Below, piece by piece: positions 4,269 to 29,025 of a stretch of 64,000 bases of DNA (position 1 is the first letter of the stretch; the number at the start of each line of letters is the position of its first letter). The position numbers and the translations under genes are program-made. The notes under the pieces were generated by a model. It saw only the letters and a program-made list of their open reading frames with translations. It was not told the origin of the DNA and did no database searches. The DNA comes from a virus, in the IMG/VR virus record IMGVR_UViG_3300002026_000015, positions 1 to 64,000 of that record, one strand, 5' to 3'.

Positions 4269-4365
4269 TATATTAAGTTATGACAAAGTCGGATATAAGA
4301 TAAGATTTCTTATACTTCGCAAAATTTTTCTATGGTTCAAAGTAACCAGGAACGGATTTATTATG
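4267..4365 (+). repeat. conserved ~100-bp early promoter/structured leader, copy A
   Basis: About 90% identical to 26481-26579 (8 substitutions and 2 indels by hand count); 32 nt identical to 49456-49487. Confidence 0.9.
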
Positions 4366-4701
4366 ACTACTCTTACAACAACTGAGCCTGTATCTAAATT
4401 TTCTCTCACTATCGCTGATTTTAAGGCAAATAATGTTGACATGATATGGCAGCAGGAATGTATATTTAACGGGGAACTTACCCCGGTTAAATATAAGGTT
4501 ATTGTGGATGATGAGTACAAATTGAAGTTAACATTATCGTTCCCCGATCTTGGGGAATCACTTACAATGAACCTAACAGATATTCATGAGGAGTATCCAG
4601 AAAATGATAATGGGGAAACCCATTATGAAGATCAGATGGGAAGCTTCATCGTGAATGTAAAGCTTACCGATGAAGTTATTTACTTTACAATCTATAAATA
4701 A
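4363..4701 (+). CDS. hypothetical acidic protein (single-gene early cassette)
   Basis: Start reassigned to ATG 4363 after the conserved leader and RBS; ends before a terminator. Confidence 0.75.
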   Translation: MTTLTTTEPVSKFSLTIADFKANNVDMIWQQECIFNGELTPVKYKVIVDDEYKLKLTLSFPDLGESLTMNLTDIHEEYPENDNGETHYEDQMGSFIVNVKLTDEVIYFTIYK

Positions 4702-4719
4702 GATTGTAAAGTAAATAGA

Positions 4720-4749
4720 AAGAGGAGGGAATTAACCCTCCTCTTTTTT
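4720..4749. terminator. bidirectional terminator
   Basis: AAGAGGAGGG-aattaa-CCCTCCTCTT plus T tract. Confidence 0.8.
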
Positions 4750-4750
4750 G

Positions 4751-5362
4751 TTATAATTCGGATAATAATCTTTTAAACATATTTAAATTATGTTTTTCAA
4801 GACTAGACATCGATTGTTTAAATTTTTCATAATCTTTTCCAAATGTTAAACATTTGAATTTATAAAAATTAGTTTTAACAAACAATCTCCCAATGAATTG
4901 AGCTTTCGCTGTTTCAGATATGATAATTGAAGTATTATGCAAACTATCTTTAATTCTAGAATTTTCAACTTCAACTACACTCTTATCTAAAGATTCATAT
5001 CTCCCAATTATCATTTTAATAATTTTCAATATTTTAGATTTATCATCAATTTTATCAAAATTATAATCCGTAAATGGAATTATACGATCTTTATCATCAG
5101 AATCATAACCTGTAATATCTGCGATAGTTTCGGAAAAGTCTTTAAAATTCTCACGATTTCCATCTCGCTTATAGTATTCAAAATCTTCACGATCAATACC
5201 ATTTACCGAATTTATAAAACTTCGAATATTATCACTGTAGGTCGATATTACATCTTCATAGATATCATAAATCTTGAAATCATCATATTTATTTAAGATT
5301 TTTTCAAGTTTATGATTATCTAGAAGTTTTTTAATGAAGTCGCCTGCAGCCGACTCTACTGA
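4751..5362 (-). CDS. -1 frame extension (203 aa) of the 714-aa protein, probably reached by programmed frameshift
   Basis: Frame is open from 5362 to 4751 with no ATG/GTG/TTG until 5029; slippery heptamer at 5368-5362. Confidence 0.7.
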   Translation of the reverse strand, partial: SVESAAGDFIKKLLDNHKLEKILNKYDDFKIYDIYEDVISTYSDNIRSFINSVNGIDREDFEYYKRDGNRENFKDFSETIADITGYDSDDKDRIIPFTDYNFDKIDDKSKILKIIKMIIGRYESLDKSVVEVENSRIKDSLHNTSIIISETAKAQFIGRLFVKTNFYKFKCLTFGKDYEKFKQSMSSLEKHNLNMFKRLLSEL

Positions 5363-24864: not shown

Positions 24865-25086
24865 ATGGAAGCTAATCTTTTCGATATTGTAGTTCTTCCG
24901 AAAATCGTTGAAAAAGCGAGATCTGTAAATCTTTCGGGAGATCCGGCACAAGATCTTAACACTGTAATTGGGATGATGGCAACATCGTTAAAGTTTATTA
25001 GAGACTATGACCTTACAAAGGAACAATCTCAAACTTTGGCAAATGTATCCTTAGCCGCTATGAAAGATATTGGTCTTGAAGTATAA
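24865..25086 (+). CDS. hypothetical protein
   Basis: GAAGG RBS before ATG 24865; terminator 25084-25115. Confidence 0.6.
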   Translation: MEANLFDIVVLPKIVEKARSVNLSGDPAQDLNTVIGMMATSLKFIRDYDLTKEQSQTLANVSLAAMKDIGLEV

Positions 25087-25115
25087 AAAGAGTGGGTTGA
25101 TTCCCACTCTTTTTA
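25084..25115 (+). terminator. intrinsic terminator
   Basis: TAAAAAGAGTGGG-ttgatt-CCCACTCTTTTTA. Confidence 0.8.
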
Positions 25116-25139
25116 TTATGTAATAATGAGAATGTTACG

Positions 25140-25422
25140 TCTATATTAAGTGATGATCAGGATATATAAATAAGGTTTCTTCTACAGCAGCAGGTATAAA
25201 GCCTGTTGCTGGGTTGGAACTGGTTCAGGAACTAACAATTCCTGGAGAACAGTTGTATTAGAACTTAAAGGAACTCTCCAGTTCGTTAAGTTCTAATAGG
25301 ACGTCATGAGCATGACGGTTATAAAAGGCTCATCTTCTCTCCCTGACTCAAGGGATTATATGTCATAAGCATGGGCTAGACACCGCAACTATCGGATATA
25401 GTTAGAGAAGAAAGGTTTCAGG
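25140..25422 (+). ncRNA. early promoter followed by a highly structured ~260-nt leader or ncRNA (unknown family)
   Basis: TCTATATTAAGTGATGA promoter; stems 25185-25211, 25218-25254, 25256-25298 (13 perfect bp) and 25333-25411. Confidence 0.55.
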
Positions 25423-25731
25423 ATGACCTATATCAACCTGACACCGCATGCTATCGTGCTTAACGATGGTCGCTCATTTCCAGCTTCAGGAACACTTGCA
25501 CGTGTTTCGGCTAGTTATAGCACCATTGTTGACGATGTATGTACTCAAGTTTACGGCGATGTTCAGGATCTTCCTGCTCCCGTAGATGGCGTACGTTACA
25601 TTGTAAGCGCACTTGTGCTTGGAGCTCTCAATGGATCACGTTCGGATGTAGTAGCACCAGCTACTGGTCATCCTGACACTGTCAGAAATGACAAGGGTCA
25701 CATTGTATCAGTTCCATCATTTGTGAACTAG
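25423..25731 (+). CDS. NLTPH-family protein, candidate Crn4-like ring nuclease/anti-CRISPR
   Basis: INLTPH, LPAP..GVRYIVS..V, R.DVVAP and VRNDKGHI motifs; family match recalled from memory. Confidence 0.6.
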   Translation: MTYINLTPHAIVLNDGRSFPASGTLARVSASYSTIVDDVCTQVYGDVQDLPAPVDGVRYIVSALVLGALNGSRSDVVAPATGHPDTVRNDKGHIVSVPSFVN

Positions 25732-25847
25732 CAATGCATGCGGAGGCGGAAGTAACTAACGAATACTTCTAAATGGGTAGTTAACAGAATGTGTGGTCGG
25801 CAATATCCCCGCCGTAATTCCACACACCTTTCATAAAGGAAAAAGTT

Positions 25848-25879
25848 AAGAGTGAGGATTAAGCCCACTCTTTTTTTTT
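25848..25879. terminator. bidirectional terminator
   Basis: AAGAGTG(A)GG-attaa-(G)CCCACTCTT plus T tract. Confidence 0.65.
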
Positions 25880-26126
25880 ATTCTTCAGTATCGGATTTAT
25901 TAGTTTTATTCTTCTCAGAGAATACTCCACTAATATATCCAGCTCCTACAGCTGCAAGTAAACTTTGGAATGCCAATACCCAATTAGGAGTCATTCCCTC
26001 AACTATAAGGTTAGATGTCATCCATCCAATTGATGAAAAGATTACAGTAATGTATGCAATACGCTTACTTGAAACTTTCCCACCTTGAGAAAATAATTCT
26101 AAAAACCATTGTTTCATGATGTCCAA
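25878..26126 (-). CDS. small 2-TM membrane protein, holin-like
   Basis: SSKR then two hydrophobic helices and a charged C-terminus; late operon. Confidence 0.55.
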   Translation of the reverse strand: MDIMKQWFLELFSQGGKVSSKRIAYITVIFSSIGWMTSNLIVEGMTPNWVLAFQSLLAAVGAGYISGVFSEKNKTNKSDTEE

Positions 26127-26411: not shown

Positions 26412-26480
26412 AATAAGTCCTTCATTAAGTTTACACATTAAAATGTTTTAAAAGAAGTGTAATAATCAAACTTTGGAGTA

Positions 26481-26579
26481 TATATTAAGTTATGATAAAG
26501 ACGAATATGAGATAAGGTTTCTCATACTTCGCAAGATTTTTCTATGGTTCGAAAGTAACCAGGAATAGGATTTATTATG
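26481..26579 (+). repeat. conserved early promoter/structured leader, copy B
   Basis: about 90% identical to 4269-4365 with a compensatory base-pair change in the hairpin. Confidence 0.9.
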
Positions 26580-26966
26580 GAAGAAGTAGTAGTATTTGGA
26601 TCGACATATGAAGCTGTAAGCTCGTACGAAGGATACCTTAACAAATATTATTGCGTTAAGGTATCAGATGGAACGGTTATTCAATTCTCTTCTCAATCCG
26701 TAGATTTCTACGGTGACGAAGAAGAATCGATTGTTATAAACGGACTCCCGTACTCACGGGAGTCAAAGATTGTTAACGGGACTCAGGTCCTGCTGAACAT
26801 GGATGAACTCGATTTTGGAGTTCACCCATTAAATGGTCCGGAGTTCTTAACAAAACTTTCGGGCGAGATTGATCTGAGAACACTCAGATCAAACCCAAAG
26901 TCGGCAAAGTATGCCGACTTTGTGGAGGCGTATAAGCGCCTGATCGCAGATTTCAACATTCATTGA
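26577..26966 (+). CDS. hypothetical protein (single-gene early cassette)
   Basis: 129 aa after leader copy B; terminator 26968-27009. Confidence 0.8.
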   Translation: MEEVVVFGSTYEAVSSYEGYLNKYYCVKVSDGTVIQFSSQSVDFYGDEEESIVINGLPYSRESKIVNGTQVLLNMDELDFGVHPLNGPEFLTKLSGEIDLRTLRSNPKSAKYADFVEAYKRLIADFNIH

Positions 26967-26967
26967 T

Positions 26968-27009
26968 AAAGAAAGAAGGCGGATTAATCCGCCTTCTTTC
27001 TTTTTTTTT
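26968..27009. terminator. bidirectional terminator
   Basis: AAAGAAAGAAGGCGGA-tta(a)-TCCGCCTTCTTTCTTT. Confidence 0.85.
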
Positions 27010-27011
27010 AT

Positions 27012-29025
27012 TTACAAACTAGTCGTATCACACGCATTTCCCGCGCAAGCTGACTCTGACTGCACCGATGTGTTATCTTCAGTTTCGATAATGGAATTAA
27101 GATCGAAGTCTACAGAGCGTTCCATCAATATAGATGAAAGACGTTCATATTCTTCTTCAGTAATATCTTCATATCGGAGCTGAGGATAAGTTCCTCCGTC
27201 ATAATCGAGAAGAGAAATACCGTTATAAATGTTACGGTTTTCCCACATCCAATCAGTAATCATACCCCATTCATCAGGACGAACAGATACCGTTACAGAT
27301 ACATTGTGACAGTTAGTTCCTTCACGATGCGTTCCACGAATCCATTCCTTTCATAGGAATTGAAACACATGATTTTGTTTTAGGAGTATAGTAACTATCC
27401 TCAACAAATTCAGAACCAAGCACTTCAACGACGTGTTTATGCATAGGATTATCTTTTTCAAGATCAAATCTACGAATGAAATAATCATTGTGCCACGCAT
27501 GGATACCGGAAGAAGTTCCAAGAACAAGACTACACGTACCAGATGGTTTAACTGTACCGATACGTTTTGCAGGATTGATACCGATAAGGTTAGCAACTCG
27601 TTCATTTTCTTCAAGCGAAACTTTAGCAGCGATAGAAATATCGTAATCGAGAACTTTACCAGAACCGATGCCTGTCATAGATACGCCGAGAAGTGCGTCA
27701 TCTTCAGAGTTAATTCTCCATTTATCACGAAGATAATGGAAATCGGTATAACCAGCCTGAAGAGTTCCAAGGAATGTTGCATCTTTAACACGTTTATTAA
27801 GATCTTCCTGAGAAGTAATGTTAGACACATTAACCTCAGTAAGATTACAGAACTGACAGTCTTTAAGAGAGATCTCTGCACAAGGGTTGAAGAAGAGTTC
27901 CAAATCGTCAGTCCAGAAGATTCCTGGTTCACCAGCTTTAGAATTCTCAACCATAACCATGATTTCACGGAAACGCTCTTCAGATGTCACAGATCTAAGA
28001 AGAATTGCAGAATTGTTTGCAAGCTGACGCTGTTTTTCAAGCTTGTACCATGGGAGTTTACCGCCACTTGAGTGAAGCATATCGATATCCCACTGAGACA
28101 TTTCGATAGTTTTAATATCACCTTTGTACTCATATTCCATCATATATTCTGATGATGGACCTTCGCCAACAACATGTTTAATTTCACGAACGTCAATATC
28201 GAAATTACTTTTACAAGTAAGCATCTCTTCATCATCATGACTGAAGATGGAGATGAGAGCTGATCGACGAATACCGCCTGCAAGAACTGCATCGGAGATG
28301 TAACAAATAATGTCATGAACTTCGATAGGTTTAAGTTTAGCACCTTCCCCACGAGATTCAATAACATAATCGAAAACTTTACGGATACTGTGAATACAAT
28401 CGATAAGAGGTTCAGGACCAGGAGCGCGACCACCGGCGGTTTTGAGAAGTGATCCTTTAGGACGTATTTCTGAGAAGTCGTAATCAAGGTACGGTCGATC
28501 TTCAAAATAAGATCGTACAAGAGCTTTTATAGAATCCGCCCAACCCATGATACTATCTTGTACAATGAATTTACGGTGACGAGAAATAGGAGTTGTGATA
28601 GGCGGAAGTTGATCAACGTGATGTTTCTGAATAGAATAACCTACTCCAGAACCGCCAAGTAGAAGATACATGATTTCAGAGAATGCAACTGATGTATATA
28701 CTGCAAGAGCTGAACAGTTAAACATTCGAGATGCATTCATAAGGATAGGTTTTCCGGCAAATTGGAAACTTCTCATCGAAGGTACAGATTGTTTATCCAA
28801 TACAGATCCGCCAAATACACCATAAATCTCATCTGCAAGTTTTGGATATTTCCCAACATGCATATCAGCATTACGGTAGCAAAGCATTGGCCAGTCTTCA
28901 CGGCGTTGCAGTTTAGGAATATACTTTGCATATTTTGTAAAGATAATCATATCGGAGAGCATTTCCGATGGATTATTGTATTTAGACATCTTCTTTGACT
29001 CCATGATTCCGCTTTCGTCACTCAT
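27012..29025 (-). pseudogene. nrdJ: class II adenosylcobalamin-dependent ribonucleotide reductase, split by a frameshift/apparent deletion at about 27348
   Basis: FNCS, GGIRRSA, NPCAEI, CNLTE and TVKPSGT in 29025-27349; EWIRGTH..HNVS..WMWENR..YNG and C-terminal ACAGNAC in the +1 frame 27347-27012. Confidence 0.85.

Follow-up and report, generated by a model that had tools for sequence, protein, structure and literature searches.

A hairpin-rich leader upstream of a Crn4b-like ring nuclease gene in a putative early cassette of a large phage

The crn4 gene of a large phage from a microbial mat, which is predicted to encode a Crn4b-type ring nuclease, was found to be preceded by a leader that folds well beyond shuffled controls. 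We read this leader, with about even confidence, as a 5' UTR of composite origin and rich in hairpins, belonging to a mobile crn4 cassette that is expressed early, in which the hairpins probably stabilise the mRNA and mask the ribosome-binding site (RBS). The structure is real, yet the leader is not a conserved RNA element and matters less than was first thought. The broader lead is that small early and accessory genes are far more hairpin-rich than their larger neighbours, in this phage and in related phages.

Layout of the crn4 unit

The DNA analysed was a stretch of 64,000 nt, referred to here as the window (IMG/VR record IMGVR_UViG_3300002026_000015, positions 1 to 64,000), which also codes for a terminase, an SbcC-like nuclease, an NAD-dependent ligase and a ribonucleotide reductase. 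The complete record is 108,627 nt long (~108.6 kb) and represents a phage genome that is ~41% complete. A tRNA/tmRNA scan found none.

The gene located 5' of the crn4 unit ends at 25086, and the terminator found there is a near-repeat of the one that closes the unit (Table 1). The promoter between this terminator and the leader belongs to a family with copies at 1741, 4267, 25140 (the crn4 unit), 26479, 49402 and 81582 in the 108.6-kb record. Its TATATTA core and spacing are similar to the AR9 early consensus, AAATATATATTAT-N6-G(+1), which is read by the virion RNA polymerase (Lavysh et al. 2017, PMC5312081). On this likeness, transcription is predicted to start near 25156 and crn4 to be expressed early, with a 5' untranslated leader of ~267 nt. 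The phage that carries the unit is apparently AR9/phiKZ-like. Beyond the window, at 82050-82841 on the minus strand, the RNA polymerase beta domain PF00562 was also matched below threshold (20.9 bits, cut-off 23.4). The match lies in a long open frame with one in-frame TGA and is compatible with a divergent phage multisubunit RNAP.

When ORFs of at least 40 aa are counted, no ORF-free region of the window is longer than 25087-25422 (336 nt), and the leader has stops in all six frames. An earlier note on this DNA, made from the sequence alone, had described the region as the largest non-coding stretch and had placed the unit between one early promoter and one terminator; both descriptions agree with what was found (promoter core at 25119-25151, hairpin with nine T at 25848-25880). 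The crn4 stop codon is followed in order by a small hairpin, the hairpin at 25790-25823 and the terminator. As a T run lies behind the second of these hairpins in one relative, it is probably crn4's own terminator.

Table 1. Features of the crn4 unit, with positions in the window
Feature	Position	Strand	Basis or remarks
Intrinsic terminator of the upstream gene	25083-25117	+	14-bp perfect stem, then T run
Early-type promoter, TGTAATAA-N13-TCTATATTAAGT-nATGA	25119-25156	+	Repeated motif; TGTAATAA-N13-TCTATATTAAGT core at 25119-25151
Diverged copy of the phage's standard ~95-nt leader	25156-25233	+	Alignment with sister units
Hairpin A	25185-25211	+	10-11 bp with one G-U pair; within the copy of the standard leader
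Hairpin B	25218-25254	+	8-bp stem TTCAGGAA/TTCCTGGA with extension AACTG/CAGTT; pairs the residual Shine-Dalgarno
Hairpin C	25253-25301	+	13-bp perfect stem and inner 5-bp stem, ~20 bp in total
Hairpin D, CGTCAT-GAGC-ATGACG	25302-25317	+	Holds the AUG of a possible upstream ORF
Three-way junction closed by TCTTCTCT/AGAGAAGA	25333-25411	+	Weak statistical support (z -2.2)
crn4b-like ring nuclease gene	25423-25731	+	102 aa; T7, H9 and R88 conserved
3' hairpin TGTGTGG...CCACACA, enclosing CGGC/GCCG	25790-25823	+	Fold; similarity to relatives' contigs ends at 25825
Terminator hairpin, then nine T	25848-25880	+	Common to the convergent minus-strand gene 25878-26126

Identity of the crn4 product

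A phmmer search of the PDB with the single sequence identified one solved relative, Crn4b (9r7b_A, E 4.6e-5), and a profile built from 29 homologues found the same entry (9r7b, E 2.8e-6) and no other match. The AlphaFold2 model of the 102-aa protein has a pLDDT of 97.5, and all of the Foldseek ranks 1-7 obtained with it were Crn4 entries (best E 9.6e-9, TM 0.71), the next match having an E value above 1. The motifs LTPH (residues 6-9) and VRND (residues 87-90) are in register with the Thr, His and Arg of Crn4b, and T7, H9 and R88 are invariant among the 29 homologues. These three residues have been implicated in binding and catalysis in Crn4, the His and Arg being H17 and R103 in Crn4b (PMC12830947). 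The assignment of ORF 25423-25731 to the Crn4b family of ring nucleases, which bears out the ring-nuclease-like gene of the earlier note, is supported by sequence, predicted fold and catalytic residues.

Crn4b copies carried by phages and plasmids are possible anti-CRISPRs (Chi et al. 2025, PMC12830947), and the crn4 product is likely to be an anti-CRISPR enzyme. The family of crn4 homologues comprises 515 proteins at E <=1e-3. The closest relatives of the crn4 product share 84% and 79% identity with it, and deposited phages carry distant copies only.

Folding of the leader

Segments of the leader were compared with dinucleotide shuffles. The plus strand of 25140-25430 folds at -97.5 kcal/mol against -68.3 +/- 4.8 kcal/mol for the shuffled sequences (z -6.05), and 0 of 200 shuffles was as good. 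This excess is due to the 5' half and its three strong local hairpins, as the segment that contains hairpins A, B and C (25158-25305, plus strand) reaches z -7.75. The values are marginal for the multibranch domain (25300-25430; z -2.22, 2 of 200 shuffles as good) and for the 3' flank with the terminator (25725-25885; z -2.02, 4 of 200 as good), and the whole unit, 25156-25885, gave z -8.2 with 20 shuffles. All of the stems named in the earlier note are present where it had placed them and the leader does fold beyond dinucleotide-shuffled controls, but the dense structure that it had described holds for the 5' half and hardly for the multibranch domain or the 3' flank. The leader RNA is predicted to consist of hairpins A to D, each forming locally and independently of the others, and a weak three-way junction, with no single integrated fold.

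The long-range pairings of 7-8 nt that the note had listed (25826 with 25410, and 25176 with 25406) exist. On our own rough estimate (roughly 700^2/2/4^7), chance alone would give ~15 7-mer pairs of this kind in a 700-nt sequence. A possible upstream ORF of 20 codons (25307-25369), read from the sequence, has its AUG inside hairpin D and spans the 5' arm of the helix that would mask the crn4 RBS, and translational coupling between the two is conceivable.

The stem of hairpin C is a 13-bp perfect inverted repeat (25256-25268/25286-25298) with a spacer of 17 nt. Most of the stems are, like this one, perfect Watson-Crick palindromes, and for this reason the leader scores well on its minus strand too (z -4.47 for 25140-25430 and -5.08 for 25158-25305). 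The stems may therefore have arisen at the level of the DNA or by mutation. The two strands of the 5' half differ, with -57.2 kcal/mol and 7 G-U pairs on the plus strand and -41.0 kcal/mol and 1 G-U pair on the minus strand. The sense orientation is 16 kcal/mol more stable at a balanced G+T content (0.52), and this strand bias mildly favours a reading at the RNA level.

Composite origin of the leader

The sequence from 25140 to 25233 was aligned with the sister units and found to be a diverged copy of a promoter-leader of ~95 nt. A Shine-Dalgarno (SD)-like AGGAAC is left over at 25228-25233 with no start codon behind it. Between ~25200 and ~25800, the GC content climbs from ~0.33 to 0.43-0.48. 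Judged by its sequence, the leader is a composite, in which the first ~80 nt are a copy of the cassette and the remaining ~190 nt lie directly upstream of crn4. Given one short contig (151 nt, see below) and the shift in GC content, it is probable that crn4 arrived together with this ~190 nt of its own upstream DNA and with its own terminator-like hairpin. The incoming block would have landed behind a resident promoter-leader cassette and ahead of a resident terminator.

Distribution of the leader among crn4 loci

Loci carrying crn4 homologues were fetched, 126 in all (46 viral and 80 metagenomic), with full-length identities of at most 73%. Neither the leader nor the 3' flank found a counterpart at any of the 126 when used as a query for blastn, nhmmer and tblastx. 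Decay of a coding region, or loss of an N-terminal extension, was rejected as the source of the leader, because stop codons interrupt every frame and tblastx found nothing at these loci. The ORF-free gap 5' of the homologues has a median length of 71.5 nt and is 250 nt or longer in 19 of 110 cases. A set of 24 gaps of at least 200 nt was scored, and the three of these that were folded and inspected proved heterogeneous, containing terminators, tandem 14-mers and small ORFs, with no element common to the three. The tandem repeats, about five copies of a 14-nt unit (ACTTATGCATATCA-like) 5' of one crn4 homologue (L011:2770-2890), resemble iterons or operator repeats.

Rfam 15 at gathering thresholds gave 0 matches in the whole window, with riboswitches, GOLLD and ROOL included in the search. 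When an E-value threshold was used for 24900-26100, matches were obtained on both terminators, near the promoter and on individual hairpins of the leader, including RF02254 on hairpin A and RF04340 on the minus strand of hairpin C, and all of these were far under the gathering scores. No DNA similarity to deposited phages was found, and no exact 22- or 23-mer of the leader is present in IMG/VR. The 16-mer of the promoter has 48 scattered single matches in IMG/VR, and no contig there carries several of them, indicating that this collection holds no close relative.

Parts of the unit were found in three contigs. One of 151 nt from another study covers 25362-25512 with 2 differences, and two freshwater metagenome contigs from two further studies match 25446-25825 at ~97%. 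The alignment ends at 25825, past which both freshwater contigs continue into a downstream gene that is missing from this phage, and the genes flanking crn4 in them match at ~82-91% only. These matches suggest either a recent exchange of the crn4 block or an unusually strong conservation of the block. The relatives' contigs cover none of 25112-25361, apart from one 18-nt chance match (25218-25235). The leader is carried, in part, by near-identical relatives only (~98-99%), which are too close to inform covariation.

The leader therefore seems to be of local character and not to represent a new RNA family. The proposal of the earlier note, an undescribed ncRNA or switch, found no backing in the two places to which it had pointed, as there is no matching Rfam family and no counterpart of the leader in the flanks of homologous genes at the 126 loci, nor do the homologues share a recurrent long leader.

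Hairpins in other early cassettes and small genes

A sliding grid of 150 nt was applied to the whole window, and the most extreme values were obtained at 26.6-27.1 kb and 4.6-4.8 kb and not in the crn4 unit. The sister early units gave z -11.1 (26600-27100), -7.0 (4280-4830) and -7.5 (1755-2200). In the neighbouring cassette (26479-27010), where structure is denser than anywhere else in the window, a chain of perfect hairpins of 9-11 bp lies inside a 129-codon ORF (26577-26966) that has no homologue but itself among 5.8 billion proteins; this stretch could be either a hairpin array that does not code for protein or a recently arisen ORFan. The units at 1755-2200 and 4280-4830 carry perfect stems within small ORFs, and a double hairpin lies at the 3' end of each. 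Across the 108,627 nt of the genome, 71 perfect hairpins of at least 9 bp were counted, against 8-15 in block shuffles. Terminators account for most of the 71; their usual apex is GGGA-N4-TCCC, in many cases with GAAA or TTTC as the loop. The hairpins that are not terminators are clustered in early cassettes.

The coding sequence of crn4 is itself structured, with a z of -4.4 when the controls are dinucleotide shuffles and of -5.95 when they are synonymous-codon shuffles. The means for the coding sequences of 82 crn4 homologues are -3.7 and -3.25, compared with -1.8 and -1.6 for larger flanking ORFs, which the crn4 family exceeds at the level of 70%-identity clusters (p ~1e-4). Small complete flanking ORFs (85-125 aa) have a mean synonymous-codon z of -3.04 with a long tail. 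An excess of mRNA structure specific to crn4 was thus rejected, as the difference that is significant against the larger ORFs is gone against the small ones (p 0.06), and the excess appears to be general to small accessory genes in these phages. The density of hairpins is likewise not tied to crn4, being common to unrelated early cassettes and to small genes in other phages.

Two further signs of selection in the coding sequence were considered and discarded. For a conserved RNA fold, the only recurrent element is a 5-bp hairpin whose five pairs occur in 37-41% of sequences; it is dictated by the peptide VAPAT, and every other pair is present in <=27%. A greater stability of the sense than of the antisense strand was not accepted as evidence, since control ORFs are biased likewise. 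What remains is that small early and accessory genes are rich in structure, synonymous sites included, for which RNA stability, defence evasion or a mutational process could be responsible, and this is testable.

Interpretation of the leader

Under the preferred reading, the unit would give rise to an early mRNA that encodes the Crn4b-type ring nuclease and no other protein, with the ~267-nt leader at its 5' end and a short 3' trailer in which the resident terminator comes after the terminator-like hairpin of crn4 itself. The leader hairpins would shield the early transcript from ribonucleases, a generic effect, and it is from this that we infer a stabilised mRNA. The 3' domain of the leader would hide both the SD and the AUG, leaving translation damped or dependent on unfolding. 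The 3' arm of the three-way junction overlaps the purine tract of the crn4 RBS, and the SD and AUG of crn4 have predicted probabilities of being unpaired of 0.24 and 0.04, compared with 0.33-0.78 and 0.31-0.87, respectively, in three sister cassettes. The masking is thus a prediction of the fold and, as the domain responsible has a z score of only -2.2, it may be a chance fold.

An explanation that we consider unlikely, though far from negligible, is that the leader has no function and is the recombination scar left by insertion of crn4 behind the resident promoter-leader, the palindromes being mutational in origin, for example through template switching that perfects quasi-palindromes. The absence of the leader from the 126 homologous loci would be expected of a scar, as would the leftover SD that lacks a start codon (25228-25233). 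Stems that are mostly perfect Watson-Crick helices point the same way, as do the surplus of perfect hairpins over shuffled sequence (71 versus 8-15) and the presence of the non-terminator ones in early cassettes, one of which contains the homologue-less ORFan. The ORFan unit (26.6-27.1 kb) also folds about equally in sense and antisense. However, the 5' half of the leader does not, as with its 7 G-U pairs the sense strand folds 16 kcal/mol better, and a scar is not readily reconciled with the fact that, in a window where genes are tightly packed, no other ORF-free stretch is as long. The stretch has also been kept in a relative from another study, though this relative is too close to be informative.

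It is improbable that the palindromes, foremost the 13-bp repeat, act in the DNA, either as operators for an Aca-like repressor or as recombination or replication signals of a mobile cassette. Anti-CRISPR operons are often repressed via inverted repeats, the inverted repeats here are perfect, both strands score well, and near-identical terminator repeats flank the cassette. However, no gene for a DNA-binding protein was recognised adjoining the leader, and the repeats lie ~100 nt 3' of the inferred start, away from the promoter. The palindromes also all differ, which does not suggest a single binding protein.

We give little credence to a separate functional RNA, whether a decoy (a mimic of a CRISPR repeat, or RNA anti-CRISPR) or a structure that hides early transcripts from RNA-guided or collateral RNases. 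Nucleus-forming jumbo phages do stay vulnerable to type III CRISPR and Cas13 via their transcripts (reviews; PMC13282480), and hairpin B with its extension, at ~37 nt, has the size of a repeat. The stem pattern of hairpin B was compared with 185,579 genomes, and among the matches listed there were single chance-level matches per contig and no arrays; this search with one hairpin lends nothing to the RNA decoy suggested in the earlier note. Structure in the coding sequences beyond synonymous shuffles (z -5.95 for crn4, mean -3.25 for the 82 homologues) would fit a shield, but small ORFs in the flanks reach nearly the same level (mean -3.04, p 0.06), which leaves no signal specific to crn4, and no pair other than those of the VAPAT-dictated 5-bp hairpin is conserved in position.

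A wider form of the shielding idea takes in the dense structure of the whole early transcript, of the sister cassettes and of small accessory genes in related large phages as an adaptation against type III CRISPR, Cas13 and collateral RNases. We regard this as a long shot. If it were true, the ring nuclease would still be made once defence signalling is underway, and as a sub-case the leader may be a switch that responds to the defence signal.

We know of no natural cOA riboswitch. A translational switch responsive to a ligand or protein, for instance a sensor of cyclic oligoadenylate that opens a masked RBS only under active defence signalling, is very improbable, for although the RBS is predicted to be paired in the closing helix of the three-way junction, pyrimidine tracts at 25176-25183 and 25333-25340 are alternative partners for the same purine tract and the substrate of Crn4 is a signalling nucleotide (PMC12830947), the RBS-adjoining domain that a switch needs is barely beyond chance (z -2.22), there is no Rfam match, other homologues have no such leader in gaps with a median of ~71 nt, and both alternative pairings sequester the SD, so that no ON state is evident. 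A role of the leader as riboswitch, decoy or shield is thus unsupported, and the hairpin-rich 5' UTR of a mobile cassette is retained as the preferred reading.

As large phages that shelter their DNA are exposed via their RNA, it is plausible that they would counter type III CRISPR signalling with an early ring nuclease, though this does not mark the present phage as nucleus-forming. The crn4 locus provides a clean, self-contained Crn4b cassette in which this idea of early ring-nuclease defence can be tested.

Comparison with known systems

The predicted fold of the leader resembles SD-sequestering leaders, RNA thermometers and riboswitch platforms in that the purine tract of the SD is paired with upstream pyrimidine tracts and the AUG is also paired. 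Unlike riboswitch platforms, the crn4 leader has no conserved aptamer, Rfam match or evident ON conformation, and its domain is weakly supported.

Mobile regulatory cassettes of T4-type phages, known as promoter-early stem-loops (PeSL), were reportedly described by Arbiol et al. in 2010. The PeSL units appear to mediate gene shuffling. In these cassettes as in the crn4 unit, repeated units of a terminator stem-loop and an early promoter bracket small, unrelated and often ORFan genes, and the phage studied here has a repeated promoter-leader, near-identical flanking terminators and an ORFan in the neighbouring cassette. The likeness is one of repeat architecture only. The PeSL of T4-type phages have sigma-70 early promoters and are excised as minicircles, whereas the promoter here is AR9/phiKZ-like, and, unlike PeSL, the repeated unit includes a leader of ~60 nt with its own hairpins and SD.

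The early units transcribed by the virion RNAP of AR9 and phiKZ (PMC5312081) resemble the crn4 unit in having an extended, AT-rich promoter built around a TATATTA core, and are likewise short, single-gene and early. The start of the crn4 unit is placed ~6-7 nt downstream of the promoter core, as it is in these units. However, the promoter is not identical to the AR9 consensus, RNAP genes are hinted at by the sub-threshold beta match only, and the timing of expression is deduced by analogy.

Crn4b (9r7b) can be aligned over residues 3-94 of the 102-aa phage protein, and both proteins are small and stand-alone with similar folds (TM 0.71), but the identity in the structural alignment is only ~33%. 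Members of the Crn4 family are homodimers with an exchanged beta-hairpin arm that cut cA3, cA4 and cA6, and the phage protein is placed among them by its sequence, predicted fold and catalytic residues. The report on Crn4b (PMC12830947) describes no RNA leader, whereas crn4 has a long one. The Crn4 fold has been reported to be unrelated to other known folds, and it is the Crn4 entries that the model of the phage protein matches.
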